Part shown: positions 4,245 through 27,397 of the stretch, one piece after another
How positions within the stretch are numbered: position 1 is the first letter of the stretch
How the letters are laid out: the number at the start of each line of letters is the position of its first letter
NCBI GenBank assembly: GCA_008086245.1
Contig: VSIX01000029.1
Coordinates: 11,813 to 75,812 of the forward strand
Length of the DNA stretch: 64,000 nt
Origin: Candidatus Mcinerneyibacterium aminivorans
GTDB taxonomy: Bacteria; Macinerneyibacteriota; Macinerneyibacteria; Macinerneyibacteriales; Macinerneyibacteriaceae
Direction of reading: 5' to 3'
Translations under genes and position numbers: made by a program
The notes under the pieces: model-generated
Seen by the model: the letters and a program-made list of their open reading frames with translations, nothing else
Database searches by the model: none
What the model was told of the DNA's origin: nothing

Positions 4245-4286
4245 TGATTAATTGTGAAATAATTAATTATTTATTTGGGGTTAATT

Positions 4287-5363: not shown

Positions 5364-5413
5364 ATTAAAATTATAATAACATACAGGTAAAACCATAAAA
5401 ATGGGAGGGATTA

Positions 5414-7628: not shown

Positions 7629-7629
7629 A

Positions 7630-8046: not shown

Positions 8047-8049
8047 AAA

Positions 8050-8499: not shown

Positions 8500-8523
8500 T
8501 AAGTGCTATAGGGGATTATTATT

Positions 8524-9744
8524 ATGAGTGATGAAAATAAAAATAGTAAAAAAGAAAGAACTGTAATACCGATAGGTCCTTATCATCCACTTCAGGAGGA
8601 ACCGGAATATTTTCAGCTGCATGTGGAAGGCGAGATTGTAAAAAAAATTGAATGGAGAACTTCTTATAATCATCGGGGAATAGAAAAGCTATCCCAATCT
8701 ATGAGCTATGACCAGGTTCCATATCTGGTTGAACGCATTTGTGGTATATGTTCAACTTCTCACCCGCTTTCTTATGTTAATGCGGTTGAAGACCTGGCTG
8801 AAATTGAAGTCCCTGTTAGGGCAAAATATATTAGAACTATAATAGCCGAACTTGAGAGGTTACATTCTCACCTCTTATGGGTAGGATTAGCGGGTCATTT
8901 TCTGGGATTTAATACGGTATGGATGTGGGCATGGAAGTACAGGGAACCAGTTCTTGAAATAATGGAAGCGGTAACAGGGAATAGGCAGAATTATGCTATG
9001 ATGAAAATTGGTGGAATTAGAAGGGATATTGATAATGAGGATATACCGAGCATAAAAAAAATGCTTGATGATTTAAAACCTAAAGTTGACCTTTTAAGAG
9101 GTGCAGTAATGGATGACCCTATCATTCACGCCCGTACAAAGGGGATAGGTGTATTAACACCGGAAGATGTTCATAATTATGGAGCTTTGGGTCCTACTGC
9201 AAGAGCTTCTGGCATAAAAGATGATATCAGAAGGGATTATCCCTATGCAGCTTATGATATCATTGACTGGGATGTAATCGTGGAAGAAGAAGGAGATGTT
9301 TTTGCAAAAGCTGTTGTCAGAATCAAGGAAATGTATGAATCAATAAGCATGATTCATCAATGTTTGGATGCTCTAAAAAAAGAAAATGGGGAAATTGAAA
9401 CAACTGTAAAGGAGATTCCTCCAGGAGATGGAATCGGACAGGCAGAAGCACCGAGAGGGGAAGTTTTCCATTTTGTTAGAAGTGATGGTACAAATAGACC
9501 TGTTAGACACAAAGTAAGGGCTCCCAGTTTTTGCAATGTTCCGACTTTTGAGGTTACAACTGTGGGGGAAACTATTTCAGATGCTGCAATTATACTTGCT
9601 GCAGTGGATCCATGCTATTGCTGTACCGAGCGCATGGCCGTTATTAATTCTGAAGGTGAAAAAAGTTTAACAGGGGATGATTTAATAAAAATGTCGCAGC
9701 AGAAAACTGAAAGAATGAGAAAATCCAAAAAGGAGAATAAATGA
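8524..9744 (+). CDS. Group-4 [NiFe] hydrogenase large (catalytic) subunit, NuoD/EchE/MbhL-like
   Basis: N-terminal RICGICSTSH (RxCGxCxxxH) and C-terminal DPCYCCTER (DPCxxC) NiFe-ligand motifs are both present. 406 aa. Confidence 0.85.
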   Translation: MSDENKNSKKERTVIPIGPYHPLQEEPEYFQLHVEGEIVKKIEWRTSYNHRGIEKLSQSMSYDQVPYLVERICGICSTSHPLSYVNAVEDLAEIEVPVRAKYIRTIIAELERLHSHLLWVGLAGHFLGFNTVWMWAWKYREPVLEIMEAVTGNRQNYAMMKIGGIRRDIDNEDIPSIKKMLDDLKPKVDLLRGAVMDDPIIHARTKGIGVLTPEDVHNYGALGPTARASGIKDDIRRDYPYAAYDIIDWDVIVEEEGDVFAKAVVRIKEMYESISMIHQCLDALKKENGEIETTVKEIPPGDGIGQAEAPRGEVFHFVRSDGTNRPVRHKVRAPSFCNVPTFEVTTVGETISDAAIILAAVDPCYCCTERMAVINSEGEKSLTGDDLIKMSQQKTERMRKSKKENK

Positions 9745-11537
9745 ATTTGATATTGTTAACTATTGCAATTCCTCTCATTGCAGGCTTTTTAATTTTTATT
9801 CTTCCAAAAAAATTTACTAATATTACAAAGTTTCTTTCAACAATTTCCATATTAATATCTTTTATAATTAATATAATTTTGTTCATTAATACAGAAAAAA
9901 TAGTCAACAACTATTTTATGTTTGATAACTTATCTAAATTTATTTTGCTTTTTATAGGCCTGTTTGCAGTCTTTGTAATTATATATTCACTTAAATATAT
10001 AGAGAGTGTTACAGAAAATATAAATATGTATTTTTCATATATTTTGTTTACTGTAAGTGCATCTTATGGAGCAGCTCTTGCTAATAATTTAATTCTTCTC
10101 TCTGTATTTTGGGGATTTTTAGGTTTTACTTTATATATGTTAATAAATACGAATGACAATGCAACTGCTGAATCCAGTAAAGCTTTTATAATAATAGGAG
10201 CTACAGATTCATTGATGATAATTGGTATAGGTATTTTATATTACATCACCAGTTCTCTAAATATCAGCAGCATTAATATTTCTTTAAAACAGGGTCCCAT
10301 TTTTTTACCTACCATTGCATTTTTAACTTTTGTTGCTGCAGCATTTGCTAAAGCCGGCGCTATGCCTTTTCATACTTGGATTCCGGATATGTCGGAAAAG
10401 GCTCCCATTCCAGTTACAGCATTTTTACCTGCATCTTTGGATAAGCTTCTTGGGATATATTTACTTGCAAGAATAAGTATTAGTGTTTTTGAGCTTAATT
10501 CCTCAATGACATTTATATTATTACTGTTTGGATCAATTACAATAATTGCAGCCGTTTTTATGGCACTTGTTCAGCATGATTTAAGAAAACTGCTTTCCTA
10601 TCATGCAATAAGTCAGGTTGGGTATATGGTTCTTGGTATCGGTACGGGTAATCCCGTAGGTATAGCAGGGGGATTATTTCATATGCTTAATCATTCAATA
10701 TATAAAAGTAATTTGTTTTTAATAAGTGGTTCGGTAAAATATCGTACCAATACAATGAATATGGATAAACTTGGCGGACTGGCTAAATACATGCCGATAA
10801 CTTTTATTGGGGCTGTAATTGCCTCTCTATCAATATCCGGGGTGCCCCCATTTAATGGATTTGTTTCAAAATGGATGGTATATCAGGGTCTAATTGATAT
10901 GGGAAAAGCTGGAAGTAAATTATGGATTTTATGGCTTGTAGCAGCTATGTTTGGTTCCGCTTTGACTCTTGCTAGTTTCATGAAAGTCATTTATTCAGTA
11001 TTTCTGGGAAGATCAGAAAAAAAATGGAGTTTTGGGGATGTTAACTGGACTATGCTTTTACCTATTATTTTCCTATCGATTCTGTGTGTAGGATTCGGAG
11101 TTTTCGCTTTTGCAGTTCCATTAAAATTATTTATAATTCCAGCCCTTGGAGAAATTGGATTATTTGGATTATGGAATTCTCAAATGGCAACCTTATTAAT
11201 GTTAGTGGGCATTGCTTTGGGCTTTTTGATATACTTAATTGGAAATATGAAAAATGTACGTGAAAGCGATATTTTTATTGGAGGCGAAGAAATTCCTTCA
11301 AATAAAAGAGTTACAGGAACTGAATTTTATGACAGTATAAGGGATATATCTATTTTAGATAAAATATATAAAATGGCAGAGAAGAAATATTTTGACCTAT
11401 ATGAAATGCTTAAAAAATTTACATTTGCTATCACTAACAGACTCAGATTAATTCATTCGGGGAAACTTGTAGCATATATTCTTTGGATATTTTTTGGTAT
11501 GGCTGTTTTGTTTATTTTATTAAACATTAGGGGCTAA
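9741..11537 (+). CDS. Antiporter-like membrane subunit (NuoL/MrpA N-terminal type; MbhH-like)
   Basis: 598 aa polytopic protein. LLSYHAISQVGYMVLGIG matches the NuoL/M/N/MrpA/D proton-pump family core. Confidence 0.75.
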   Translation: MNLILLTIAIPLIAGFLIFILPKKFTNITKFLSTISILISFIINIILFINTEKIVNNYFMFDNLSKFILLFIGLFAVFVIIYSLKYIESVTENINMYFSYILFTVSASYGAALANNLILLSVFWGFLGFTLYMLINTNDNATAESSKAFIIIGATDSLMIIGIGILYYITSSLNISSINISLKQGPIFLPTIAFLTFVAAAFAKAGAMPFHTWIPDMSEKAPIPVTAFLPASLDKLLGIYLLARISISVFELNSSMTFILLLFGSITIIAAVFMALVQHDLRKLLSYHAISQVGYMVLGIGTGNPVGIAGGLFHMLNHSIYKSNLFLISGSVKYRTNTMNMDKLGGLAKYMPITFIGAVIASLSISGVPPFNGFVSKWMVYQGLIDMGKAGSKLWILWLVAAMFGSALTLASFMKVIYSVFLGRSEKKWSFGDVNWTMLLPIIFLSILCVGFGVFAFAVPLKLFIIPALGEIGLFGLWNSQMATLLMLVGIALGFLIYLIGNMKNVRESDIFIGGEEIPSNKRVTGTEFYDSIRDISILDKIYKMAEKKYFDLYEMLKKFTFAITNRLRLIHSGKLVAYILWIFFGMAVLFILLNIRG

Positions 11538-11538
11538 T

Positions 11539-12093
11539 ATGCTTGAACTTTACATTGTTTTAATATTAATGATAATTGGAGCTATAATAGCAGTAGAAAC
11601 AAAAAGTATTTTATCTTCGATAGTTGCTCTGGGTAAAGTAGGACTGGGGCTTACCATTGCCTTTTTGATATTAAAAGCTCCGGATTTGGCTATAGTTCAG
11701 CTAGTTGTTGAGATTTTAACCCTAATAATACTTATCCGTGCAACTCTTGGAAGAGATGTAAAATATACTAAAGAAAATCAGAACTGGGGGGTTAAATTTC
11801 TCTCAATTATTTTAATTATTATCTTTTTAATTTTTTCCTACAATGTTTTACAATCATTGCCGGAGTTCGGAAATCCAATATTAAAAGTTGCAGATTACTA
11901 TATAGAAAACGGCATGAAAGAAACGGGAGCTGCAAATCTTGTTACTTCTGTTATTCTTGATTTCCGTGCCTTTGATACTTTAGGAGAAGCAACAGTTTTA
12001 TTTACTGCTATTTTAGGAGCTTTAGCGGTTTTAAGAAAAAATGGAATTAAGGATAAAGATACAAAGGAAAATAAAGGAGTTCAAGGTGATTAA
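11539..12093 (+). CDS. Separately encoded MrpA C-terminal-like / MnhB-domain subunit (MbhD/E-like)
   Basis: N-terminal TM region plus NLVTSVILDFRAFDTLGEATVLFTAILG, the MnhB-domain signature. Confidence 0.6.
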   Translation: MLELYIVLILMIIGAIIAVETKSILSSIVALGKVGLGLTIAFLILKAPDLAIVQLVVEILTLIILIRATLGRDVKYTKENQNWGVKFLSIILIIIFLIFSYNVLQSLPEFGNPILKVADYYIENGMKETGAANLVTSVILDFRAFDTLGEATVLFTAILGALAVLRKNGIKDKDTKENKGVQGD

Positions 12094-12535
12094 TAACAGA
12101 GATTCTCAGGGTATGTCAGTAATTGTAAAAACTATTACAAGGTTGACTATTGGATTGATTCTTCTGTATGGTGTGTACATATTATTACACGGACATATTA
12201 CACCGGGAGGAGGTTTCGCCGGGGGAGTTATAATTGCCCTGTCTTTTATACATATAATGCTTGCTTTTGGAAAAAATGTTGCCCTTGAGAAATTAAATCA
12301 AACCTGGAGCAAAATTTTTGAAAGTACAGGGGCGCTGTTATTTATTACTATAGCATTTCTCGGTTTTTTTGGAGGGGTGTTTTTTAATAATTTTCTGGAT
12401 AAAGGAGAACATTTTGAACTTTTCAGTGCCGGAACAATCTTGCTTTCGAATATTGCAATATTTTTAAAGGTTGGAGCAGGTTTGTTTCTTTTATTTGTTG
12501 CTCTTGTTCTATTTAAAATTGGGGGTAGAAAGTGA
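12086..12535 (+). CDS. MrpB-like subunit (MbhF-like)
   Basis: HGHITPGGGFAGGVIIA is the MrpB signature. The tracked start (12041) overlaps the upstream gene. GTG 12086, preceded by AAAGGAG, is preferred. ATG 12113 is an alternative. Confidence 0.55.
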   Translation: MINNRDSQGMSVIVKTITRLTIGLILLYGVYILLHGHITPGGGFAGGVIIALSFIHIMLAFGKNVALEKLNQTWSKIFESTGALLFITIAFLGFFGGVFFNNFLDKGEHFELFSAGTILLSNIAIFLKVGAGLFLLFVALVLFKIGGRK

Positions 12536-12867
12536 TATATTTTCTTTGCTTTATATTATTTAGTATTGGACTTTATAGTATATTAACAAAAAGAAATCTC
12601 ATTAAAATTATAATCGGGATATCCATAGTTGATTATGCAATAAATTTATTCTTTATTTTGGTGGGATATAGAATGAATGGGAGATCTCCAATTTTAGAAA
12701 AAGGAGAAGAAATTGAAAGAATAGTCGATCCATTGCCCCAGGCCGTAGTTTTGACTTCTATTGTTATCGGTCTGGCAGTAACTGCATTACTGGTAGCAAT
12801 TGCTATTAGAATATATGAAAAATATGGTACTTTTGATATCAATGAAATTAAAGAATTGAAAGGATAA
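12532..12867 (+). CDS. MrpC/NuoK-like subunit (MbhG-like)
   Basis: 111 aa, 3 TM segments, NuoK/MrpC-like. Confidence 0.6.
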   Translation: MIYFLCFILFSIGLYSILTKRNLIKIIIGISIVDYAINLFFILVGYRMNGRSPILEKGEEIERIVDPLPQAVVLTSIVIGLAVTALLVAIAIRIYEKYGTFDINEIKELKG

Positions 12868-12869
12868 AA

Positions 12870-14363
12870 ATGGAACATATTATACCATTGTTTGTAGCAA
12901 TAAGTCTGGCAACAGCATTTTTAATATCACTGCTGGGATCAAAATTTAAATTTTTTAGAACAGCATTTCCTGTCATTTCTTCAGCTGCACTTGTTATACT
13001 TTCTGTTCTTTCAATTTTTCTTGTAAATAATAATGGTTTAATGGTATATAAAATGGGAGGCTGGATTCCTCCTATAGGAATATGTATGGTTCTGGACGGA
13101 TTGTCTTCCTTTATGCTTTTAACCGTTAATTTAGTTGCTTTTTTTATAATGATATATTCAATAAATTATGTTAAAAAATATACAGATGTTTATAAATATT
13201 TTGGGCTGCTATTTTTGATGCTGGCAGGAATGAATGGTGTAATTATAACAGGGGATCTTTTCAATTTATTTGTGTATTTGGAAGTTGCTGCAGTATCAAG
13301 TTATGCTCTTGTAGCTTTTGGTACAGGGAGACAGGAGCTGGAAGCATCCTTTAAATATATGGTTATGGGAACACTTGCTTCCGGTTTAATATTGTTATCA
13401 ATTGCTTTAATGTACAGCTATACTTCAACTTTAAACATGGCTGATATTGGCAAATCTCTTGCAAATGAAGGAAGTTCTTCCGTGATAATTTTTATTTCAG
13501 TAATGTTTATTGTAGGTTTTGGTCTAAAAGCAGCACTTGTGCCGTTTCACTGGTGGCTGCCCGATGCTCACCCATCTGCACCTGCACCTATTTCTGCTAT
13601 GCTTTCAGGGGTGCTTATAAAAGCATTAGGAGTTTATGCTATAATAAGAATATTTTACAATGTTATCGGAAGCAATATATATACTTCAAGAATATTGCTT
13701 GTATTAGGAACCCTTTCCATGATAGTTGGAGTAATTTTCGCAATTGGACAGTATGACTTTAAAAGATTGCTTGCATACCATTCAATAAGTCAGATCGGTT
13801 ATGTTATACTTGGAATCGGTTTGGCAACTCCTCTCGGAATTTTGGGGGGACTTTTCCATTTATTTAACCACTCAATATTCAAATCATTGCTCTTTTTAAA
13901 CTCGGGAGCTGTTGAATATTCAACCGGAACAAGAGATTTAAAGAAAATGGGTGGACTTAATAAGAAAATGCCGGTAACCGGAAATACATCAATGATAGCT
14001 TCTATGTCAATAGCTGGGATTCCACCTTTTAACGGATTCTGGAGTAAGCTTTTGATAATAATCGCCTGTGTAGAAGCTAATGAGTATATTTATGGACTAT
14101 TTGCTGTCATAGGTAGTGTTCTTACAATGGCATCCTTTATGAAAGTTCAGAAATATGCATTTCTGGGCAAACTAAAGGAAAAGTGGAAAAATATAGAGGA
14201 AGTACCATTTGGAATGAAGTTTTCTATGATTTGTTTGGCTCTTATTTGTGTATTTGGTGGTTTATTACTGTTACCTGAAATATCTAATTTATTACTGAAA
14301 GAAGCATCAAATGCAGTTTTAATAGGTAAAGAATATGTTAACCAGGTTCTGGGGAGTGTTTAA
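12870..14363 (+). CDS. Second antiporter-like subunit (MrpD/NuoM-N-like)
   Basis: 497 aa. LLAYHSISQIGYVILGIG and WWLPDAHPSAPAPISA fit the MrpD/NuoM family. Confidence 0.75.
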   Translation: MEHIIPLFVAISLATAFLISLLGSKFKFFRTAFPVISSAALVILSVLSIFLVNNNGLMVYKMGGWIPPIGICMVLDGLSSFMLLTVNLVAFFIMIYSINYVKKYTDVYKYFGLLFLMLAGMNGVIITGDLFNLFVYLEVAAVSSYALVAFGTGRQELEASFKYMVMGTLASGLILLSIALMYSYTSTLNMADIGKSLANEGSSSVIIFISVMFIVGFGLKAALVPFHWWLPDAHPSAPAPISAMLSGVLIKALGVYAIIRIFYNVIGSNIYTSRILLVLGTLSMIVGVIFAIGQYDFKRLLAYHSISQIGYVILGIGLATPLGILGGLFHLFNHSIFKSLLFLNSGAVEYSTGTRDLKKMGGLNKKMPVTGNTSMIASMSIAGIPPFNGFWSKLLIIIACVEANEYIYGLFAVIGSVLTMASFMKVQKYAFLGKLKEKWKNIEEVPFGMKFSMICLALICVFGGLLLLPEISNLLLKEASNAVLIGKEYVNQVLGSV

Positions 14364-14857
14364 TGAGAAGCAAAATAGTTTTATTTATAGTGGCGTTGGT
14401 AGTTTGGCTGGGTTTCACCTGGCCACCTGATTTGTCTCATTTGTTGGTAGGAATACTTGTAGCTATTTTCGTGGCTTACATGACAGGTGATATGTTTATA
14501 ACACGTCCACATCACTTAATACATCCTTTGAGGTATTTCTGGCTATTTGTCTATATTCCTGTGTTTATATGGGAATGTTTTAAAGCTAATCTGGATGTCG
14601 TTTACAGGGTTATCCATCCTGATGTTCCTATTAATCCGGGTATTGTTAAAGTTAAAACCAAATTAAAGTCGGATACTGGAATTACTTTTTTAGCCAATTC
14701 TATTACCCTAACACCTGGAACCTTAAGTGTGGATGTAGATCAGGATAATGGATACTTATATATCCACTGGATCCATGTTTTTAATGAAGATGTTGAAGGA
14801 GCAACTAAAGATATTGTTAGAAGATTTGAATATATATTGGAAAGGATTTTCGAATAA
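14363..14857 (+). CDS. MrpE-like subunit (MbhA-like)
   Basis: 164 aa, N-terminal TM pair. Position in the Mrp E-F-G series. Confidence 0.5.
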   Translation: MRSKIVLFIVALVVWLGFTWPPDLSHLLVGILVAIFVAYMTGDMFITRPHHLIHPLRYFWLFVYIPVFIWECFKANLDVVYRVIHPDVPINPGIVKVKTKLKSDTGITFLANSITLTPGTLSVDVDQDNGYLYIHWIHVFNEDVEGATKDIVRRFEYILERIFE

Positions 14858-15228
14858 TGAAAAAGAGATTGCGATGGATTTTAGGTTCTGTAGTTTTAAT
14901 TATAATATTATATTTAATTTTATTTTATCCCTTCCAGATATTAATATATGAGAAATTATTATTTATACCTGTATTAAAAAGGGTAATCTTTATTCTCTTA
15001 TTGAGTGCAGCTTTTTGTTTGTTTAGGATTATGAAAGGACCTACTGCTCTGGATAGAATAGTTGCTATTGATATTTTGGGGATATTAATTGTTGGGTTAT
15101 GCTCTGTATTAACTATTACCACCGGAAGAAGCTGGTATCTTGATATAGGTATAGCCTGGGCATTACAGAGTTTTATAGGAACAATAGCACTTTCAAAATA
15201 TATGGAAGGGCGGGATTTTGATGATTGA
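14857..15228 (+). CDS. MrpF-like subunit (MbhB-like)
   Basis: 123 aa, small 3-TM protein immediately following the MrpE-like ORF. Confidence 0.5.
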   Translation: MKKRLRWILGSVVLIIILYLILFYPFQILIYEKLLFIPVLKRVIFILLLSAAFCLFRIMKGPTALDRIVAIDILGILIVGLCSVLTITTGRSWYLDIGIAWALQSFIGTIALSKYMEGRDFDD

Positions 15229-15565
15229 TACTATAGGGATTATTTTTATAGGTCTAGGGATCTTTTTTGACCTTTTTGGTTGTTTGGGTTTAATAAGATT
15301 TCCGGATTTATATAATAGGCTACAGGCATCAACCAAATGTGTTACATTTGGAACGGGAAGTATTTTATTTGGAACTTTTTTAATAGTGGGATTTACAGCG
15401 GCAGGTATAAAAGCATTATTTACAATTATCTTTATTGTTCTTACAGCGCCGGTTTCTGCCCATGCTTTGTCCAAAAGTGCACATATGTCCGGAATACCAT
15501 TATGGCAGGAAAGTGTATGCGATAAATTGGAAGATGAAAACAGATATAAAAAGAACGACCAGTAG
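15218..15565 (+). CDS. MrpG-like subunit (MbhC-like)
   Basis: 115 aa, TM-rich. ...TAPVSAHALSKSAH resembles the MnhG family. Confidence 0.55.
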   Translation: MMIDTIGIIFIGLGIFFDLFGCLGLIRFPDLYNRLQASTKCVTFGTGSILFGTFLIVGFTAAGIKALFTIIFIVLTAPVSAHALSKSAHMSGIPLWQESVCDKLEDENRYKKNDQ

Positions 15566-15595
15566 TATTATAAAATATAATAGTGAGGGATAAAT

Positions 15596-16234
15596 ATGAA
15601 GCTACCCAGTCTTTTTCAGTTTAGAGTTTTAAAAGAGGCTTTAAAATCAATATTTTCGCCGAGATATACTTCCAAATATCCGGCTGTGTCCCATGTTCCC
15701 CCAAAAAAATTTAGGGGGAAACCGGAATTTAATGAGAAAGAATGCGTTGGTTGTAAGGCTTGTGCCGAAGTTTGTCCTACAGAGGCAATTGAGGTAGTTG
15801 ATGATGTTGAAATATCGCCTCCTAATAGAAAATTTCTTCATCATTATGATTTATGTATATTTTGCGGTCACTGTGAGGCGAACTGTATTACAGAAAAGGG
15901 GATTGTTTTAGAAGACGAATACGATCTTGCTGTGTTTGATAGAGACGAAGCATTTACTTCTATTGATAAAGAATTAATAATCTGTGAGGATTGTGGGGAA
16001 ATAATTGGGGCTAAGGATCATTTAATCTATCTGGCTAAAAAATTAGGGCCTCTTGCTTACGGTAACTTCCCCCTTATTATGACAGCACAAAAAGAACTAA
16101 AAATCGTAAACAGAGATCTTCCTTCCACAATATCTGGAGAAAAAAGAAGAACGGACATGTTTAATGTACTGTGCCCCAAATGTAGAAGTGAAATACTTAT
16201 AAATATTGGTGGAAGTGAGAATGAAGAAGATTGA
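15596..16234 (+). CDS. NuoI-like 2x[4Fe-4S] subunit (MbhN-like) with a Cys-rich C-terminal extension
   Basis: CVGCKACAEVCP and CIFCGHCEANC motifs. An extra CEDCGE...CPKC pair lies in the C-terminal ~80 aa. Confidence 0.75.
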   Translation: MKLPSLFQFRVLKEALKSIFSPRYTSKYPAVSHVPPKKFRGKPEFNEKECVGCKACAEVCPTEAIEVVDDVEISPPNRKFLHHYDLCIFCGHCEANCITEKGIVLEDEYDLAVFDRDEAFTSIDKELIICEDCGEIIGAKDHLIYLAKKLGPLAYGNFPLIMTAQKELKIVNRDLPSTISGEKRRTDMFNVLCPKCRSEILINIGGSENEED

Positions 16235-16667
16235 CGACATATTAAAAGGGAAGGTACTTTTTGTAGGAATCGGAAATGAAATGAGAGGAGATGATGGGAT
16301 AGGTCCTTTTTTTGTCAAAAAGGGGCGAAGATTATTAGATGATTATCAGTTTTTGAATGTAAAAGAAACACCGGAAAATTATTTTGACAAAATGTTAGAA
16401 AAGGATATTGATACTTTAATATTTGTCGATGCCGTTGATTTTAATTCATCACCCGGAACCATCAAATTATTTGGTAAAGATCAGATTGTTAATTCTTCAA
16501 TATCCACACATAATTCATCATTAAAAATGTCGATTAATTTTTTAAAACAATTTAAAGCAAATCTAAGAATATTTTTAATAGGAATTCAACCTGAGAACTG
16601 TCAATTGAATAACAATTTATCATTTAATGTGAAAAGTAGTATTGATAGACTTCTAGATAAACTATAG
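16206..16667 (+). CDS. hycI: Hydrogenase maturation endopeptidase (HycI/HybD family)
   Basis: VLFVGIGNEMRGDDGIGPF matches the GiGN...DDg.G protease signature. Confidence 0.8.
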   Translation: MVEVRMKKIDDILKGKVLFVGIGNEMRGDDGIGPFFVKKGRRLLDDYQFLNVKETPENYFDKMLEKDIDTLIFVDAVDFNSSPGTIKLFGKDQIVNSSISTHNSSLKMSINFLKQFKANLRIFLIGIQPENCQLNNNLSFNVKSSIDRLLDKL

Positions 16668-16704
16668 TTCTTTATTTTAATTAATTTTTAGAGAGAGTAC
16701 AAAA

Positions 16705-17061
16705 ATGGATAATATGGATATAGCGGATGATTTATATTTACTTATTAAAGACCTTGCAGAAGAAGAAAATATACACTCTGTAAAGTATATTAAATTGGTA
16801 ATTGGTAAAGCATTGGAGGTTAATAAGAAAGGATTATTCAAAAAATTACAGAAGGATATATTTCCCGGGACAATTTGTAAGAATACTAAATTGGATATTG
16901 TAGAAGAAAGTGTGAAATTAAAGTGTAGAAAATGCAGCAAAATTATGACACCTGATCAAAAGTTTTTTGTATATTGTAATTATTGCGGGGGGCATGATTT
17001 TGATATTATTCAGGGTAGAAAGATATATATTGACAAAATTGAAGGGAAGACAAAGCAATAA
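16705..17061 (+). CDS. HypA-like zinc-finger protein lacking the N-terminal MHE nickel-binding motif (HypA paralog)
   Basis: CRKC-14 aa-CNYC zinc finger. Overall alignment to HypA is good, but the N-terminus is MDNMDIADD, not MHE. Confidence 0.55.
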   Translation: MDNMDIADDLYLLIKDLAEEENIHSVKYIKLVIGKALEVNKKGLFKKLQKDIFPGTICKNTKLDIVEESVKLKCRKCSKIMTPDQKFFVYCNYCGGHDFDIIQGRKIYIDKIEGKTKQ

Positions 17062-17079
17062 AAATTATAAGGAGGAAGT

Positions 17080-17724
17080 ATGGAGATTGTGAAAATTGGG
17101 AAAGAGGCAATGAAAAAAAATGAAAATTTTGCTGATAAAAATAATAAATTACTTACAGATAATGATATATTTGCCGTTGATGTTATGGGATCGGTTGGTT
17201 CGGGAAAAACATCAATAATTAAGCAAATAATTAAAAAATTAAAAAATAAACAAAGAATTGGAGTGATAGCAGGGGATTTGACTACTGAGATTGATGCCAG
17301 GCGAATTGAAGAGGAAGGAGTACCTGTAATACAGATTCAAACGGGAAGAGTGTGTCATTTGGATGCTGGACTTGTACAAAAAGCTATTACAAAATTTAAT
17401 TTGGCGGATATAGATTTATTATTTATAGAAAATGTAGGTAATTTAATTTGTCCTGCAGGCTGTCCGATAGGAGCCCATATGGAACTTGTTGTTACTTCTG
17501 TGACCGAAGGGCCCTATATGATTCAGAAACATCCACCGATGTTTCAAAGAGCCGATACAGTAGCTATGAATAAAATAGATTTTGCCGAAAAGATGGAAAT
17601 CTCAATTGAAAATTTTAAAGAAGATTTGAGTAAAATTAACCCGACATCTAAATTTGTCGGGACTAACGGGTTAACCGGCGAAGGGGTTGAAGAGTTAATT
17701 GAATGCATGAATTTACCGCAGTAA
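17080..17724 (+). CDS. hypB: Hydrogenase nickel incorporation GTPase HypB
   Basis: GSVGSGKTS P-loop. ENVGNLICPAGCPIGAH is the HypB signature. 214 aa. Confidence 0.85.
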   Translation: MEIVKIGKEAMKKNENFADKNNKLLTDNDIFAVDVMGSVGSGKTSIIKQIIKKLKNKQRIGVIAGDLTTEIDARRIEEEGVPVIQIQTGRVCHLDAGLVQKAITKFNLADIDLLFIENVGNLICPAGCPIGAHMELVVTSVTEGPYMIQKHPPMFQRADTVAMNKIDFAEKMEISIENFKEDLSKINPTSKFVGTNGLTGEGVEELIECMNLPQ

Positions 17725-18104
17725 AAAATATTATCAATATTATTTTAAAAGCTGCAAGGGATAATAATGCAGAAAAAATATATTCAATTAAAATCGGTAT
17801 AGGTGAATTAACAATGCTTGAGAAAAATCAGATCCAATACTGGTTAAAGCTAATGCTGGATGAGATAGATATAGCCAAAAACAGCAAGTTAAATTTACAT
17901 ATAATAAAAGGCGTTATAAGATGTCAGGAGTGCAATTTTAAGGGACCGCTTGAATCAACTATGGAACTTAACCATCTTTTCCCTGTAATTAAATGCCCGG
18001 AGTGTGAAAGCAATAATATTGAAATTATTAAAGGGGACAGATGCCTTGTAGAAGAAATGGAAGTAGATAAATATAATGAAAGTATATCAGGAGGGGATAA
18101 TTAA
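17703..18104 (+). CDS. hypA: Hydrogenase nickel insertion protein HypA (canonical)
   Basis: N-terminal MHEFTAV (MHE Ni site). CQEC...CPEC zinc finger. Overlaps hypB by 22 nt. Confidence 0.85.
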   Translation: MHEFTAVKNIINIILKAARDNNAEKIYSIKIGIGELTMLEKNQIQYWLKLMLDEIDIAKNSKLNLHIIKGVIRCQECNFKGPLESTMELNHLFPVIKCPECESNNIEIIKGDRCLVEEMEVDKYNESISGGDN

Positions 18105-19414
18105 TGTGCTATGCTATTCCTGGACAGGTTGTAGATATTAATAAGAAAAGATTGATTGTAGAGTATTTCGGTGAAAAAAGAAAGGTCCTAAACGAATTTT
18201 TGGATATCAGCATAGGAGATTATATATATGCCCAGGGGGGATATGCCATCAATAAAATACCCGAAAAGGAAGCCGTATCCATTTTAACTGCATGGAGGGA
18301 AACTTTTTTCAATTTGCAAAAAGTTGATTTAAAAATATCTAAAAGGGATTATAAGGATAAAAATATTAGAAAAGATATTGCGAATATACTGGATAAAGCT
18401 GTAGAAAATAAAGACCTTTCTAAGAAAGAACTTTTAAAACTGATGAATATAGAAAAAAAAGAAGAATTAGAAATGCTTTATAAAACGGCAAATTTTTTGA
18501 GAAGAAAATATATGGGTAATTCATGCTGTGTTCATGGAATTATAGAATATTCGAATAACTGTGTTCGTAATTGTAAATATTGCGGTATATCTACTTATAA
18601 TTCTGATATATCAAGATATAATATAGAAGAAAAAAATATTGTTAAAATTGCAAATAAAGCTGTTAACGAGCATGGCTTTATGGCTCTGGTTTTACAGAGT
18701 GGTGAATCTGATGAGTACAGTATTGAAAAACTATGCAGGATTATAAAAAAAATTAGAAAAGATATTGCTGTTTTGATTTTTATAAGTATGGGAGAACTTT
18801 CCAGAAAAGAATTGCAAAAATTGTATGATGCAGGGGCAAGAGGTTTTCTCCTGCGGTTTGAAACAAGCAATGAAGAGTTATATTCAAAATTACATCCCGG
18901 ATATAGATTGGAAGATAGAATTAACTGTATACAAAACGCTTCTGATATAGGTTATTTTATTGTAACAGGTGGTTTAATTGGACTCCCCGGGCAAACAAGA
19001 AAAGATGTATTAAATTCCATATTGCTTGCGAGAAAACTTAAAACCGAAATGTACAGCTTTGCCCCCTTTATACCCACACCTAATACTCCCCTTAACAGTG
19101 AAACCAGTCCGGAAGAAAAAGAAGTTTTAAAAACTCTGGCTATATCCAGAATAGTTGATCCAGAGAATGCCAAAATATTAATTACAACTGCATTTGAAAC
19201 AATAAATAAATCGGCAAGAAAAAATGGCCTTCTAGCTGGAGGTAATTCTTTAATGTTAAATGTTACTCCCGATAAATATAAAAATAATTATTTCTTGTAT
19301 CCAAACAGGGCTCATAATAATGAAACTATACAGGAACAAATTGATGAAACCGTAAATCTGCTGAATTATCTCGGTAGAGCCCCAACTGATATAGGTATAA
19401 ATTGGAATAGTTAA
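18104..19414 (+). CDS. Fusion protein: N-terminal HypC/HupF-like domain (MCYAIPG...) fused to a HydE/BioB/PylB-family radical SAM domain
   Basis: First ~70 aa: MCYAIPGQVVDIN...GDYIYAQGGYAI...EKEAVSILTAWRE, a HypC pattern with Cys2. From ~aa 125: LRRKYMGNSCCVHGIIEYSNNCVRNCKYCGIS (CX3CX2C), LQSGE, LLRFETSNEELYSKLHP, IGLPGQT and FIPTPNTPL, close to HydE motifs as remembered. Start overlaps the hypA stop (TAATG). Confidence 0.7.
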   Translation: MCYAIPGQVVDINKKRLIVEYFGEKRKVLNEFLDISIGDYIYAQGGYAINKIPEKEAVSILTAWRETFFNLQKVDLKISKRDYKDKNIRKDIANILDKAVENKDLSKKELLKLMNIEKKEELEMLYKTANFLRRKYMGNSCCVHGIIEYSNNCVRNCKYCGISTYNSDISRYNIEEKNIVKIANKAVNEHGFMALVLQSGESDEYSIEKLCRIIKKIRKDIAVLIFISMGELSRKELQKLYDAGARGFLLRFETSNEELYSKLHPGYRLEDRINCIQNASDIGYFIVTGGLIGLPGQTRKDVLNSILLARKLKTEMYSFAPFIPTPNTPLNSETSPEEKEVLKTLAISRIVDPENAKILITTAFETINKSARKNGLLAGGNSLMLNVTPDKYKNNYFLYPNRAHNNETIQEQIDETVNLLNYLGRAPTDIGINWNS

Positions 19415-19674: not shown

Positions 19675-20115
19675 ATGAAAATAAAAAAAATAGATAAAAG
19701 TTCAGAACTGGACAAATATGGGATTGAATCGGTAGTAAAGTTTTTACATAAGCATCTGGAAGAATATGGGGATAAGAAAAAAGCTATCAGGGAAGCGATA
19801 AATTATTCATTTTCAGAAAAAGAAGGAAAAGGTGGATTTCTTCTTTTAGGTCTGGAGAAAGATAAAATAATAGGAGCAGTTGTAATAAATAAGACAGGAA
19901 TGAAGCATTATATACCTGAAAATATTCTTGTATATATAAGTACTCACAAAAAGAGAAGAGGTCAGGGGTTGGGAACAAAACTGATGAAAAAAACAATAGA
20001 GGAAACATCTGGAAATATTGCTCTGCATGTCGAAGAGGATAATCCGGCCGTGGGTCTTTATAAAAAATTAGGATTTGAAACCAAATATCTTGAAATGAGA
20101 TACAGGAAAGATTAA
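19675..20115 (+). CDS. GNAT family N-acetyltransferase
   Basis: 146 aa. RRGQGLGTKLMKK and HVEEDNPAVGLYKKLGFE are GNAT motifs A and B. Confidence 0.7.
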   Translation: MKIKKIDKSSELDKYGIESVVKFLHKHLEEYGDKKKAIREAINYSFSEKEGKGGFLLLGLEKDKIIGAVVINKTGMKHYIPENILVYISTHKKRRGQGLGTKLMKKTIEETSGNIALHVEEDNPAVGLYKKLGFETKYLEMRYRKD

Positions 20116-20119
20116 GGTT

Positions 20120-21217
20120 ATGGCTTATTTAACTGTTTATACAAAAAGAATATTAAAAAATATTAAGAAAATAGATAGAATCATGCAGGAACATAATAAA
20201 AAATGGACACTTGTAGCAAAAGTTCTCGGGGGGCACGAGGAATCTTTAAAAAATGTTTTAAGTTTATGCAGTGATGTGAAAAATCTTACTGGTGTTGCTG
20301 ATTCAAGACTTACAAGTTTGGAAACGATTAAAAATATTAATTCAAATGTAAAAACAATGTATATAGCTCCTCCATCAAGAAAATCAGTTAACAAGGTAGT
20401 TAAATATGCCGATATATCCTTGAATTCATCTTTTTCTACAATAAAGAAGCTGAACAAAGCTGCAAAAGAAGAAAATACAGTTCAAAAAATAATTATTATG
20501 GTAGAATTAGGAGAATTAAGAGAAGGGGTATTAAGAGAAAATATAGTTGAATTTTATGAAAAGGTTTTTAAATTAGATAATATTAAAGTGATTGGATTGG
20601 GGACAAATCTTGGATGTATGTATGGAGTTGAACCTACATACGATAAACTTATACAGCTGTCTCTTTATAAGGAGATTATAGAAGCCAAGTTCGACAAAAA
20701 GCTTGAAATAATTTCTGGTGGAAGTTCAATCTCTCTACCTATGCTTTTTAAAGATAAGATACCTGAAAACATGAATCACTTTAGAATTGGAGAAGCCGCT
20801 TTTCTAGGCACAACTCCTTTAACCGAGGGTAAATTTAGAAATTTATCCAGAAATACCTTTAAATTTTATTCCTATATTATTGAACTTGAAGAAAAAAGAT
20901 CAAAACCTCAGGGTAATTTAACTGATGCCAATGTTGGAGACGGACTGCCTTATGAACCAGAGGAAAATGAAACTATACTTAGGGCGGTTCTGGATTACGG
21001 AAAACTTGATGTTGATAACAAGCATCTAAAACCTAAAAATCCGGATATGACATTTGCAGGTTCTTCTTCGGACATGTCGGTTTATAATGTTAAACAAATT
21101 ACCAAAAAGGATGGAAATAAGATGTATAAGGTTGGTTCAAAAATTCAATTCAATCTTGATTATATGGGAGTTGCGCGATTGATGACGTCCAAATATATTA
21201 AAAAGAGGGTAGTATAA
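20120..21217 (+). CDS. PLP-dependent enzyme with an alanine-racemase N-terminal-domain fold (putative amino-acid racemase, YhfX/ornithine-racemase-like)
   Basis: 365 aa. N-terminal LVAKVLGG is a candidate PLP-lysine motif. Overall alr-fold family resemblance. Family assignment is from memory only. Confidence 0.45.
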   Translation: MAYLTVYTKRILKNIKKIDRIMQEHNKKWTLVAKVLGGHEESLKNVLSLCSDVKNLTGVADSRLTSLETIKNINSNVKTMYIAPPSRKSVNKVVKYADISLNSSFSTIKKLNKAAKEENTVQKIIIMVELGELREGVLRENIVEFYEKVFKLDNIKVIGLGTNLGCMYGVEPTYDKLIQLSLYKEIIEAKFDKKLEIISGGSSISLPMLFKDKIPENMNHFRIGEAAFLGTTPLTEGKFRNLSRNTFKFYSYIIELEEKRSKPQGNLTDANVGDGLPYEPEENETILRAVLDYGKLDVDNKHLKPKNPDMTFAGSSSDMSVYNVKQITKKDGNKMYKVGSKIQFNLDYMGVARLMTSKYIKKRVV

Positions 21218-21251
21218 ATTAGTAAATTTGTAGGAAAGGATAGTTATTAGT

Positions 21252-22598
21252 ATGTCCATCCCGGATATTAAATCAGTATTGAAAATTGCTTTAGGTCCCA
21301 GCTCATCTCATACTCTTGGAGCTTTAAAAATTGGTCAGAAAGTTAGAAAATTTTTGAATTCATTAGAGGATGTCGAATTTAACAGGATAAAAGTCAAACT
21401 TTTGGGCAGTTTTGCTCTTACCGGAAAGGGGCATCTAACCGATAAAGCAATTATAGCAGGACTCAATGGATACGAGGTGGACAAATCATCAAATTCCATC
21501 TTAAATGAATATACTAAAGTAAATAAAAGAAATAAAATTGATACGGGAATTCAGAAAATTTCTTTTTCTAAGGATGATATAATTTTAGACAAGGATGATT
21601 CTTCATACAGCCATCCTAACACCGTTTTGTTTACTATTTATTCAAACCAAAAAAAATATAACAAAAAATTTATCTCAATTGGTGGCGGTGAAATTGAGGA
21701 AATTAATAAAAACGGTAATATTTCCCAAAAAAAGCAAACAAAAAGTAAAGGTTTAACCCGGATAATTTCTGAATGTAATAAAAACAATATTAATATTATC
21801 GATTATATTCTTTCATTTGAAAAAAATATTTACGGTTACGAAAAAAATGAACTGTATCGATATTTAGGAGATATTTGGGATTTAATGGAGAAAAATATTG
21901 AAGACGGAATTAGAAAAGAGGGAGTACTCCCTGGTAATTTACAATTAAATAGAAGAGCTAAAGAGATGTATGATTCTTTTATTGATAATTTGAGAAGCTG
22001 GAAATTGCTATCGCGCCAAATAACCTTATCTTCAATTTATGCTATTGCGGTTGCCGAGGAAAATGCCTCAGGAGCTAAAATAGTTACGGCCCCTACCTGC
22101 GGGTCTGCAGGAGTTATACCGGCAACATTAAAAGTTATGATGGAAAAATATCATTATCCCAAAAAGAAAATATTAAATGCTTTACTGGTAGCCGGTTTAT
22201 TAGGTGCTATAGCTAAGGGGAATGCTTCTATATCTGGTGCAGAGGTGGGCTGCCAGGGAGAAATTGGGGTTGCATCATCAATGGCTGCAGGGGCTATTTG
22301 TTTTTTGATGGGAGGTACGCTGGAGCAAATCGATTTTGCAGCGGAGATTGCTCTGGAACACCATCTTGGTTTGACCTGTGACCCAGCTGGAGGGCTTGTC
22401 CAAATTCCATGTATTGAGAGAAATGCGGTAGGTGCTATTACAGCATTAAACTCTGCAAACTTATCTTTATTAAGAAAAACACCGAACAAAATTAAATTCG
22501 ATAGTGTTCTTGATTCTATGATGGAAATTGGTGGGGATATGAGTAAAAAATATAAAGAAACCTCTCTTGGAGGATTGGCAAGTAGATTTACCTGTTAA
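21252..22598 (+). CDS. sdaA: L-serine dehydratase, iron-sulfur dependent, single-chain (beta + alpha domains)
   Basis: N-terminal GPSSSHTLGALKIG and C-terminal TAPTCGSAGVIPA match SdaA/SdaB signatures. 448 aa. Confidence 0.8.
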   Translation: MSIPDIKSVLKIALGPSSSHTLGALKIGQKVRKFLNSLEDVEFNRIKVKLLGSFALTGKGHLTDKAIIAGLNGYEVDKSSNSILNEYTKVNKRNKIDTGIQKISFSKDDIILDKDDSSYSHPNTVLFTIYSNQKKYNKKFISIGGGEIEEINKNGNISQKKQTKSKGLTRIISECNKNNINIIDYILSFEKNIYGYEKNELYRYLGDIWDLMEKNIEDGIRKEGVLPGNLQLNRRAKEMYDSFIDNLRSWKLLSRQITLSSIYAIAVAEENASGAKIVTAPTCGSAGVIPATLKVMMEKYHYPKKKILNALLVAGLLGAIAKGNASISGAEVGCQGEIGVASSMAAGAICFLMGGTLEQIDFAAEIALEHHLGLTCDPAGGLVQIPCIERNAVGAITALNSANLSLLRKTPNKIKFDSVLDSMMEIGGDMSKKYKETSLGGLASRFTC

Positions 22599-22677
22599 AA
22601 CCTCATTCAGAGAGTTAAGTCATAGATAAAGGGGGAAGAATTTAGCTTTTATATAATTTTATCTGCTAAATTAATTT

Positions 22678-23241
22678 ATGATTTTATCAAATATCGAAAT
22701 AATATATGAAACTTTAATTGTCCTCTTTTTAGTATATTTATCTTACAAAATCTTATTGGGTCAAATTATTTTTATCGATAAATATTACATACATATTTTA
22801 AAATTTACCCCTGTATTTTGGATTGTAACTAAATATTACTCCAATATTCTCTCCGGAATCATATTCATATTATATATTGTATTTTGCGTTCTGGTTTTTG
22901 CCTATACAAAAAAAAATGTAATTATAATTGCTAAAAAGGAAAAATATTTATCATTTCTTTATAAATATTTTGTTAATAAAGAAATTAGATTTAAATATGA
23001 TAGAAAGGTGTATGAAGTATCAATATATTTACCCGATTACAACTTAGAAATTGCTTCAAATAAAACAATTATTAGTTATTTAGAAATCATACTTCCTGCA
23101 TCTATAACAACTGAAGAACAATCTGTAGTAAATATTATAAGAAAAAATTCAAAAAATAAAAATTTAAATATAAATAGGAATAATGCATTCAAAATATTGC
23201 TTTTTTTAGCAGGATTAATGGTGTTCTTTTATTATTATTGA
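22678..23241 (+). CDS. Hypothetical membrane protein
   Basis: 187 aa, several hydrophobic helices, low complexity. No recognisable family. Confidence 0.3.
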   Translation: MILSNIEIIYETLIVLFLVYLSYKILLGQIIFIDKYYIHILKFTPVFWIVTKYYSNILSGIIFILYIVFCVLVFAYTKKNVIIIAKKEKYLSFLYKYFVNKEIRFKYDRKVYEVSIYLPDYNLEIASNKTIISYLEIILPASITTEEQSVVNIIRKNSKNKNLNINRNNAFKILLFLAGLMVFFYYY

Positions 23242-23348: not shown

Positions 23349-24473
23349 ATGAAAAAAATTATCGTTTTATTCCTATTAGTTATATTTTTATTTAGCTGTT
23401 CAACTCGAAAAAAAGTTGAGAATGTTGATGCGGAATTAATTGATGTTTGGATACCTGAAAAACTGAGCTTGCGTAATCCACTGGAAAATATTGGAATCTA
23501 TGAAGATAAAGTTTATTACTGGAGTAATAGCGGTAATAAATATTTTTTAAATTTTTATGATTTAAGCGGTAGTAATATTAAAAAACTGGAATTTGAGATG
23601 GGCAAAGGTCCCGGTCAAATCTTTTCAAATAATTCGACTTTCATAAAGAATGATCAAATAAATATACTGGATCTGGCTAGACGGTCTCTTTTAGTTTTTG
23701 ATATGAATGGAAAATATGTCGATGATTATAAGATTAACATTAATGATTTTGGCCAGGTTGCCCGAAATCAAAATTATCTATATTTTAGCGGAATATTAAA
23801 GAATAAACTTGCTAAAATTGATCTAGAAAATAATGAAGTAGTGAAGAGTATAAAGTATAAAAATGCTGATTCAATTAAGTCATTTAGGGATATAATGGGA
23901 AAGAAACTTAGAATGTCATCAATTATTATCGACGAAGAGGCAAAAATACTTTATAGAGGTACATCTAATCTGCCCTATAAAATAGAAAAATATGATTTTA
24001 ATTTGGAAAAAATTGATGAATTTAAAAGAGAAATAACGGGAAATTTTAAAGACTTTATAATTGAAGAAGGTACCGGAGGAAGCGGCTCAATTATTATAAG
24101 CAGCATGCAAACAGATGATAAATACTTATATGCATCATTTGGAGGGGGACAGGTTACAGAAAGGAAAAATAATAAAATATCTCTTTCGGGAATTGCAAAT
24201 GATTATTTTATTTCTGTTTTTGACAAAAAAAACGGTGATTTCCTTTATGAAATTAATGTTCCTTCTATAAGTCCATTAAAAGGAGTAACAAAATTATTGA
24301 AAGTAACAAAAGATAAATTGTTTATTATGGTGGTGGATTTTGAAGACACTTTAAATGACCTTTTAAAGGATAAGAATTTGAAGGCTGAAAAGAATGAATT
24401 GGAAAGTAGATTTATTTCAAGTGATGTAAAAAGAGCTATTGTTATAGTAAAAAATCCCATTTATCAGGATTAA
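23349..24473 (+). CDS. Hypothetical lipoprotein
   Basis: Signal peptide plus lipobox LFSCS. 374 aa, no recognised motif. RBS GGAGG upstream. Confidence 0.5.
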   Translation: MKKIIVLFLLVIFLFSCSTRKKVENVDAELIDVWIPEKLSLRNPLENIGIYEDKVYYWSNSGNKYFLNFYDLSGSNIKKLEFEMGKGPGQIFSNNSTFIKNDQINILDLARRSLLVFDMNGKYVDDYKININDFGQVARNQNYLYFSGILKNKLAKIDLENNEVVKSIKYKNADSIKSFRDIMGKKLRMSSIIIDEEAKILYRGTSNLPYKIEKYDFNLEKIDEFKREITGNFKDFIIEEGTGGSGSIIISSMQTDDKYLYASFGGGQVTERKNNKISLSGIANDYFISVFDKKNGDFLYEINVPSISPLKGVTKLLKVTKDKLFIMVVDFEDTLNDLLKDKNLKAEKNELESRFISSDVKRAIVIVKNPIYQD

Positions 24474-26436: not shown

Positions 26437-27348
26437 TTATATATATATTTTTTTCAGGGTTAGTTCATCAAGGTTAAATTTGCCGAGATTCAGGTCTTTA
26501 CCATCATTAAGATATTTAATTTCTTCAGGTTTAAATCCAAGTATTTGTGAGGCTGCAACATCAACAGCAAGTATATCAGTGCTGATTAACTGCATTTTTT
26601 TTGTTACTACTTTGCTGTTGTAATATCCCGAAGGGCCTCCTCTTACCATTACATTATAGGCATCTACGATATTTAAATCAGGTTTCCTGTAATTGAAAAT
26701 TTCTGCTATACATCTGTGTAGTCCATTTCTGTGATAAAACGATCTATCCCACACAATTCCCATAAAATTTTTCATAGCACTGGTCATTTTTGTTGATCCA
26801 TGTGTTTTTAATACTGGAATATTTATTAATTTATCAGCAGAGAGAACGAGTTCATGCACTTCTGCAGTATTTAAAATTTTTGTATTAGCAATTTTTACCT
26901 TATTAAAATATTTTGGGCTGGAAGCTGGAACTATTTTAGCTTTTGTGCCACTAACTGCATTTTTTATCCCGCTTACCCTATAGGTGGTGTCAGCGTTATA
27001 AATGGTATGATCAAAAATATTCACCTCTTTCGCACCCAAATCAAGACATGCCTGCAGTACAGTTTTAACAAGTGTTGGATTAGTATTACCTCCATCATCG
27101 GGTGAGGAATTCCATGAAGCATTTACCTTTATAGCTACTGAATCCCCTTTTTTTATGAACTTTTTTAATCCTCCCAGATAAGGTATTCCCTTTTTAAACA
27201 TAACATCAGGGCTGCCTCCCTGTACAGCGACAAGTTCGTAATTATTGCTATTCTGCCCCAGAATAAGTGGAGTTCCGGATACAAGATATCCAATTGAGGA
27301 AGCCCCAATTATTTTTAAAGATTTTTTTATAAAATCTCTCCTATCCAT
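26437..27348 (-). CDS. Tat-signal DUF362-family protein (exported, putative redox/cofactor protein)
   Basis: N-terminal MDRRDFIKKSLKIIGASSIGYLVSG (twin-arginine motif RRDFIK). The rest resembles the DUF362 family. Confidence 0.55.
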   Translation of the reverse strand: MDRRDFIKKSLKIIGASSIGYLVSGTPLILGQNSNNYELVAVQGGSPDVMFKKGIPYLGGLKKFIKKGDSVAIKVNASWNSSPDDGGNTNPTLVKTVLQACLDLGAKEVNIFDHTIYNADTTYRVSGIKNAVSGTKAKIVPASSPKYFNKVKIANTKILNTAEVHELVLSADKLINIPVLKTHGSTKMTSAMKNFMGIVWDRSFYHRNGLHRCIAEIFNYRKPDLNIVDAYNVMVRGGPSGYYNSKVVTKKMQLISTDILAVDVAASQILGFKPEEIKYLNDGKDLNLGKFNLDELTLKKIYI

Positions 27349-27397
27349 ATAGTCCTCCTTTACCTAATATTTCATATTTTTATTATATTCTATTTTT

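Follow-up and report, generated by a model that had tools for sequence, protein, structure and literature searches.

We analysed a 64-kb stretch of DNA (the window) from a metagenome-assembled genome (MAG) of Candidatus Mcinerneyibacterium aminivorans; all positions refer to the whole stretch. Five open reading frames (ORFs) on the plus strand at 16206-19414 close an operon (4275-16234) for a group-4 [NiFe]-hydrogenase of the Mrp/Mbh type, as assigned by Pfam. They encode HycI, a HypA paralog, HypB, canonical HypA and a protein in which HypC is fused to a radical S-adenosylmethionine (SAM) enzyme, and we term them the maturation cassette. An initial annotation had placed the same five genes at 16206-19414, and Pfam and NCBIfam profiles bear out both the coordinates and the identities. 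The genes, and the two domains of the fusion, are as follows.

16206-16667, plus strand: HycI-type maturation endopeptidase (PF01750, 50.6 bits; TIGR00072, 94 bits, cutoff 47.45)
16705-17061, plus strand: HypA paralog 1, 118 aa (PF01155, 69 bits)
17080-17724, plus strand: HypB nickel-insertion GTPase, 214 aa (TIGR00073, 230.2 bits, cutoff 121.2)
17703-18104, plus strand: canonical HypA (copy 2), 133 aa (PF01155, 81.7 bits)
18104-19414, plus strand: fusion ORF, 436 aa
18104-18310, plus strand: HypC domain of the fusion, residues 1 to about 69 (PF01455, 52.8 bits over residues 1-64, cutoff 28.5)
18386-19414, plus strand, stop codon at 19412-19414: HydE-like radical-SAM domain of the fusion, residues 95-436 (TIGR03956, 242.9 bits)

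Within the fusion, Pfam finds HypC, then Radical_SAM, plus a weak match to BATS. The HypC part scores slightly below the cutoff of TIGR00074 (45.8 bits, cutoff 48), and the solved HypC structure from T. kodakarensis (PDB 2z1c) matches the N-terminus of the fusion at E 1e-10. Like HypC, HybG and HupF (PF01455, TIGR00074), the protein has an N-terminal OB-fold domain of ∼65 residues with an invariant Met-Cys start, and its gene closes a [NiFe] operon, next to those for HypA, HypB and the protease. It begins with MCYAIPG, and Met1-Cys2 is unchanged across 25 aligned family members; Cys2 is the residue that binds iron in HypC proteins. Unlike those relatives, which are free proteins of 70–90 aa that are usually encoded with HypD and act in complex with it, the fusion is covalently joined to a radical-SAM enzyme of 340 aa, and no hypD was found in the window or near the fusion gene in ∼90 loci, 84 of which are described below. 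The position of E. coli HypC His51 is moreover occupied in the 25-member alignment by an invariant glutamine, Gln44, in an AQGG motif.

The radical-SAM domain matches HydE best. In [FeFe]-hydrogenase maturation, HydE takes the [Fe(Cys)(CO)2(CN)] synthon that HydG makes from tyrosine and strips the cysteine from it. HydE of T. maritima (structures 3IIZ and 7O1O) aligns end to end with residues 95-427 of the fusion (E 3e-61, 35–36% identity). An AlphaFold model using 25 homologues was confident over both domains, which it renders as one rigid body (pLDDT 90.4, pTM 0.90), and Foldseek matched it to T. maritima HydE with TM 0.93–0.96 and rmsd 1.4–2.7 Å, identifying a HydE fold. The score on the HydE equivalog profile TIGR03956 lies slightly below the cutoff of 254.6 bits, as do those of two relatives (225.1 and 238.6 bits), and all fusion domains tested fall at 225–243 bits. 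Scores for PylB (153 bits), BioB (130) and HmdB (90) are far lower than that for HydE.

Active-site residues agree with this assignment. The CX3CX2C motif of radical-SAM enzymes is present as C153/C157/C160 (nt 18560-18583). Pocket residues Q107, R159, E161 and T268/269 of HydE correspond to Q198, R251, E253 and T361/T362 of the fusion, and Met224 and Met291 to M316 and M384; all of these, and the CX3CX2C motif, are invariant in 25 fusion sequences. These two methionines of HydE have been proposed to hold Fe(I)(CO)2(CN)S intermediates (PMC11826987). Unlike HydE, members of the fusion family carry the HypC domain, have none of the C-terminal auxiliary-cluster cysteines (which are non-essential in HydE), and usually have Arg in place of Lys309. 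The radical-SAM part of the fusion is, on sequence and predicted fold, a HydE paralog.

We searched the species genomes of GTDB using two peptide patterns from the HypC domain and checked the matches by tblastn, which gave 391 confirmed matches to the fusion family. In a protein collection, the best 120 of 1968 matches were nearly all PF01455 plus PF04055 proteins, and these 120 came from Margulisiibacteriota, Saganbacteria, Omnitrophota and Caldatribacterium. Carriers include the closed or near-closed sequences CP187957.1 (Caldatribacterium saccharofermentans), CP070684.1 and OY969425.1. Members from different phyla share the domain order and the linker, at 53–59% identity if two close relatives are set aside; the closest GTDB match to the window fusion (80% identity) is on a 3.8-kb contig, L008. 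We rejected an assembly or frameshift artefact as the source of the fusion, the same architecture being found in hundreds of independent assemblies.

Gene neighbourhoods were examined in 85 loci of ±10 kb, where ORFs were called, clustered and compared to references; tblastn counts are for 84 non-redundant loci.

[NiFe] large subunit: 66/84 loci
HycI: 61/84 loci
HypA: 55/84 loci
HydG: 44/84 loci
[FeFe] HydA: 9/84 loci
HypB: 4/84 loci

By the same tblastn searches HypD, HypE and HypF were found in 0/84 loci, and none was found in five extra fusion loci (L088, L090, L091, L093 and L094). The most common gene order was hydrogenase (group-3b-like or group-4 Mrp type), HycI, HypA, fusion, Rex in some cases, and HydG. 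One of the extra loci, L094, whose fusion is a divergent two-domain member, has the window's own set, HycI-HypA-HypB-fusion, and its next gene is HydG, overlapping the fusion stop by 4 nt. HydF was sought among 1554 neighbour proteins with a P-loop and motif regular expression, which returned ABC transporters only; no HydF profile was run, and a very divergent HydF could escape this search.

The link between the fusion and HydG is often tight. Among loci with at least 3.5 kb of sequence downstream, 40 of 67 have HydG. It overlaps or directly abuts the end of the fusion gene in ∼14 loci, lies within ∼110 nt in three more, and is parted from the fusion by a single Rex (or other small) gene in ∼15 further loci. 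The neighbouring HydG proteins are bona fide, scoring 463 and 506 bits where the equivalog cutoff is 312. In L093, which carries a divergent two-domain member, fusion, HydG and HypA all lie within 7 kb, and the closed 1.28-Mb Omnitrophota genome of L062 has a stand-alone HypA80-fusion-HydG module.

Two proteins join all three parts as HypC–HydE-like–HydG triple fusions: P0121 (906 aa, L088:10001-12721) and P0131 (881 aa, L090:10001-12646), with HydG parts scoring 607 and 631 bits. They are only distantly related, P0121 is found on five contigs, and each lies within a [NiFe]-hydrogenase cluster; we count them as two independent cases. An exhaustive search of 50%-identity representatives returned ∼20 fusion clusters, then a gap in score, then ordinary unfused HydE. 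In two genomes (L052 and L061) a canonical HydE scoring 331 and 360 bits is encoded separately, next to HydG, while the fusion is next to [NiFe] genes. Taken with the scores below the equivalog cutoff, this indicates that the fusion is a paralog and not simply the HydE of the cell. Of the proteins that HydE works with, HydG is linked in 44/84 loci and part of the same polypeptide in two cases; HydF turned up in none of the loci and the [FeFe]-hydrogenase HydA in nine, and none of the three was found in the window.

The initial annotation had stated that HypD, HypE and HypF are not within the 64-kb window, and this held. E. coli HypD, HypE and HypF (NC_000913) gave no tblastn match to the window at E<=1, and a Pfam scan of 20 large ORFs outside the operon revealed no HypD, HypE, HypF, HydG, HydF or [FeFe]-hydrogenase; their content was transporters, tRNA synthetases, SMC, FtsY, BamA and similar. 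A second, unfused HypC was not found in the window either. We asked whether two ORFs with no Pfam match (23349-24473 and 36311-37375) could be a divergent HypD or HypE, and dismissed this because they are lipoprotein- and outer-membrane-protein-like with no HypD motifs.

The remaining cassette genes are those for nickel insertion and proteolytic processing. HycI scores below the cutoff of its own equivalog profile, TIGR00142 (99.7 bits, cutoff 119.1), and may start at TTG 16206 (153 aa) or ATG 16221 (148 aa). HypB has the P-loop GSVGSGKTS and a metal site of CH plus C (RVCHLD, NLICP), with no N-terminal Cys- or His-rich nickel site. The reported duplication of hypA is real, the two copies sharing 21% identity. 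Copy 2 has every expected feature, an N-terminal Met-His-Glu and both CxxC pairs. The first copy was aptly called HypA-like: in the alignment both CxxC pairs of its zinc finger are kept, and since it starts MDNMDI, with no Met-His-Glu, it lacks the nickel ligand His2. Its sole match among 5.8 billion proteins was itself, in a word-seeded search whose limits mean that this says nothing on its spread. We treat it as a putative diverged accessory or decaying copy.

Spacing within the cassette is close. The overlaps reported earlier (22 nt for hypB/hypA, 1 nt for hypA/fusion) stand, while the gap before hypB is 18 nt (17062-17079) rather than 19. A strong ribosome-binding site, AGGAGG, precedes hypB. 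The suggestion that all five genes form one translational unit is reasonable for hypB-hypA-fusion and weaker for hycI and the HypA-like gene, which are followed by gaps of 37 and 18 nt. No terminator-like site was found between the five genes, and a 260-nt spacer with a promoter-like site separates the fusion from the next gene.

The large subunit contains RICGICSTSH and DPCYCCTER, followed by a 36-aa C-terminal tail, and retains all four active-site cysteines. Because of these features we expect a normal NiFe(CN)2CO site and processing by HycI, which would trim the tail after DPCYCCTER. HypB and the HypA bearing Met-His-Glu would insert nickel. For the iron unit, HydG would make an Fe-CO/CN synthon that the HydE-like domain would process, Met316 and Met384 holding the iron species; the fused HypC domain would then take the iron unit on Cys2 and pass it to the apo large subunit.

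We see about an even chance that the region serves to mature the upstream hydrogenase and that the fusion, fed by HydG, does the job of HypD, HypE and HypF or part of it; the chemistry, the hand-over at Cys2 and the dispensability of HypDEF are what we infer. That HydG and the fusion would constitute a complete HypD/HypE/HypF-independent pathway, making the Fe(CN)2(CO) unit from tyrosine, we propose tentatively, at somewhat less than even odds. The initial annotation had offered two options, HypD, HypE and HypF encoded elsewhere or an alternative Fe-ligand route involving the fusion. The latter is the better supported by these gene and domain comparisons, if unproven: substantial indirect support comes from the HydE-like domain, the adjacency of HydG and the triple fusions, the [NiFe] linkage, and the lack of HypD/E/F in ∼90 neighbourhoods.

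Several observations weigh against a HydG-fed route. HydG was not found within the 64-kb window, and would have to be encoded elsewhere in the genome; nor is it within ±10 kb in 27 of the 67 related loci, including that of the cultured Caldatribacterium saccharofermentans (L001). In nine Omnitrophota loci an [FeFe]-hydrogenase lies between fusion and HydG, and HydG there may serve the [FeFe] enzyme. Absence of HypD/E/F applies to the window and the neighbourhoods, while hyp genes are often scattered. Lys309, a proposed radical relay in HydE, is Arg402 in the window protein and Arg in most fusions. HydG is known to yield a product with two CO and one CN, whereas a [NiFe] site requires one CO together with two CN, so the route would need an unprecedented ligand exchange. 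There is enough ligand material, as two tyrosines yield two CO and two CN, but the stoichiometry is still a real difficulty.

The fusion might instead be an operon-specific accessory HypC paralog like HybG or HupF, in a cell where HypD, HypE and HypF, encoded at another site and perhaps accompanied by another, plain HypC, build the Fe(CN)2CO unit. Its radical-SAM domain would then add a non-essential or partial step, e.g., providing the CO ligand only under anoxia as an anaerobic counterpart of HypX. The splitting of hyp genes is common (E. coli hypF is 13 kb from hypABCDE), the window is only 64 kb of a MAG and has no HydG, and with HypA and HypB present in it the rest of the classical set may be elsewhere; moreover, all known [NiFe]-hydrogenase producers need HypCDEF (PMC9431212). 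Yet classical hypC nearly always abuts hypD, while 0/84 loci and none of the five extra fusion loci have HypD/E/F within 10 kb, and 44 have HydG. The replacement of His51 by an invariant Gln also speaks against a conventional HypC role, the triple fusions that include HydG point to an Fe-ligand line complete in itself, and a reduced symbiont genome with only protease, HypA, HypB and fusion is reported in a 2026 preprint. We therefore regard the accessory explanation as possible but rather unlikely.

Could the fusion simply be the organism's HydE for an [FeFe]-hydrogenase, with a HypC domain gained by chance or for co-regulation and the two halves independent? NCBI does label several members '[FeFe] hydrogenase H-cluster radical SAM maturase HydE', residues of the HydE active site are retained, and nine loci have an [FeFe]-hydrogenase within 10 kb. 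However, every member tested is below the equivalog cutoff, two genomes have a separate canonical HydE, the regular-expression search found HydF in no neighbourhood, and no [FeFe]-hydrogenase was found in the window. [NiFe] structural genes, HycI and HypA occur in 55–66 of the 84 loci, against nine for [FeFe], and independent halves fit poorly with a domain order and linker conserved across phyla and a model that is one rigid body. We consider this explanation very unlikely indeed. It is also very unlikely that the radical-SAM domain performs unrelated chemistry, such as modifying the large subunit or a small-molecule cofactor (cf. PylB, BioB and HmdB), with the HypC domain as a tether. These families are close, the domain also matches their profiles, Lys309 is replaced and the auxiliary cluster is absent; but both sequence and fold match HydE far better than anything else, the HydE-specific iron-binding Met pair is invariant, and the recurrent partner HydG makes the substrate of HydE.

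The HydG-fusion route can be set beside known systems. The pathway through HypCDEF needs the same end product, followed by the same nickel-insertion and protease steps (HypA, HypB, HycI); it uses cyanide derived from carbamoyl phosphate and a HypC-HypD scaffold, whereas here HypD/E/F are in neither window nor neighbourhoods and tyrosine-cleaving HydG recurs instead. HydE too has HydG as its recurrent genomic partner, but the fusion goes with [NiFe] rather than [FeFe] structural genes, with no HydF found, and coexists with canonical HydE in two genomes. HypX is the CO-ligand synthase of aerobes and uses formyltetrahydrofolate. Under the accessory explanation the fusion would be like HypX, an add-on enzyme giving a diatomic ligand to HypC-bound iron; the two are unrelated in sequence, however, the fusion belongs to strict anaerobes, and its partner works by radical-SAM cleavage of tyrosine. 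Finally, HydEF and algal HydE-HydF are Rosetta-stone fusions of consecutive maturation enzymes, and the triple fusions follow the same logic; unlike those, HypC–HydE-like(–HydG) crosses the boundary between the [NiFe] and [FeFe] machineries.

The operon upstream of the cassette has an electron-input module, a hydrogenase core and antiporter-like membrane subunits, all assigned by Pfam.

4275-6705, plus strand: electron-input module of three proteins
4275-5363, plus strand: Fer4_22 protein
5414-6232, plus strand: FAD/NAD-binding FNR-like protein with DHODB Fe-S domain
6223-6705, plus strand: 2x[4Fe-4S] protein
6693-7628, plus strand: hydrogenase core, NuoH-like
7630-8046, plus strand: hydrogenase small subunit (NuoB-like)
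8050-8499, plus strand: NuoC-like subunit
8524-9744, plus strand: large subunit (NuoD-like)
9741-15565, plus strand: Mrp/Mbh antiporter-like membrane subunits
15596-16234, plus strand: 2x[4Fe-4S] protein, 212 aa

The Fer4_22 and FNR-like pair (4275-6232) is found at the head of the hydrogenase operons in most related loci; in the window it precedes an Mrp-type group-4 hydrogenase, and in relatives the same pair heads group-3b-like operons. This pair suggests that the window hydrogenase is NAD(P)H-linked and ion-translocating. The gene order of the membrane subunits recurs in Omnitrophota and Planctomycetia loci (L004, L028, L064, L078 and others).

Downstream of the fusion, 19675-23241 encodes a GNAT acetyltransferase, a pyridoxal-phosphate (PLP) protein of the alanine-racemase fold, an L-serine dehydratase and a 187-aa protein. 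In L008 the fusion is followed by ORFs of the same lengths (146, 365 and 187 aa, a comparison by ORF length only), with no counterpart of the serine dehydratase. HydG does not lie 3′ of the fusion in the lineage of the window and L008. Farther along, at 26437-28849 on the minus strand, a DUF362 protein (303 aa) adjoins a 483-aa protein rich in 4Fe-4S motifs.

Other features were noted in the related loci. In L004 (9722-9964), L005 (9756-9998), L001 (9753-9995) and ∼40 others an 80-aa mini-HypA is encoded directly upstream of the fusion. It keeps the MHE start and the C-terminal strand, the whole zinc-finger insert is gone, and there is usually no HypB nearby; it is the commonest HypA in these loci, and this arrangement suggests nickel insertion with neither zinc domain nor HypB. 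A gene for a Rex-type repressor (Put_DNA-bind_N plus CoA_binding) directly follows the fusion in 38 related loci, e.g., L004:11321-11977, often between fusion and HydG, a position that hints at control of the fusion module by NADH/NAD+. At L015:4544-5257, with cluster members in L026, L039, L042, L052 and L077, a membrane protein of 237 aa that has a loop rich in His (HTHTHTHPDGTTHLHKHTH...) adjoins hydrogenase or fusion genes and is probably a nickel transporter. The hydrogenase operon on the Caldatribacterium saccharofermentans chromosome is preceded, at a distance of a few kb, by a reverse-transcriptase-Cas1 fusion, Cas2 and an IS605 OrfB/Cas12f-like gene (L001:1-4852).

Eight Omnitrophota loci (L024, L033, L034, L039, L045, L052, L054 and L058) contain a block that starts with fusion, Rex, histidine kinase and a small ferredoxin-like protein, and continues with a GltD/NuoF-like protein, an [FeFe]-hydrogenase (∼590 aa), a NuoE-like protein, a response regulator and HydG; in L052, canonical HydE follows HydG. 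With the fusion, an [FeFe]-hydrogenase and HydG in one block, a single HydG locus is common to both classes of hydrogenase.

Database names given to the fusion are HydE, radical SAM protein, biotin synthase or HypC. The sole mention of it that we found in the literature is one passing sentence in the 2026 preprint. The openly available full-text literature (subscription-only papers excluded) yielded no HydG/HydE route for [NiFe] enzymes, nothing on Mcinerneyibacterium and no study of such a fusion, and a paper on Margulisbacteria and Saganbacteria, supplements included, does not discuss maturation genes. Among the organisms that carry the fusion, Caldatribacterium saccharofermentans has been obtained in pure culture (PMC13408713), and the idea can now be tested directly.

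To our knowledge, HypCDEF has been treated as universal for [NiFe]-hydrogenase maturation, and it has long been asked where anaerobes obtain the CO ligand. The linkages described here suggest that many uncultured anaerobes may make the Fe-CO/CN unit of [NiFe]-hydrogenases by a tyrosine-based radical-SAM chemistry that has until now been described for [FeFe]-hydrogenases alone. If so, there would be a defined anaerobic source of CO ligand for [NiFe] enzymes, widespread in Omnitrophota, Margulisiibacteriota, Saganbacteria, Atribacterota, Brevinematales and Mcinerneyibacteriota. The inference of hydrogenase capacity from genomes would change, since 'no hypDEF' is frequently taken to mean non-functional, and a compact module of two or three maturation genes could become available for heterologous production of [NiFe]-hydrogenases. 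One radical-SAM chemistry would feed both major hydrogenase classes, and the evolution of the two maturation systems would be linked.

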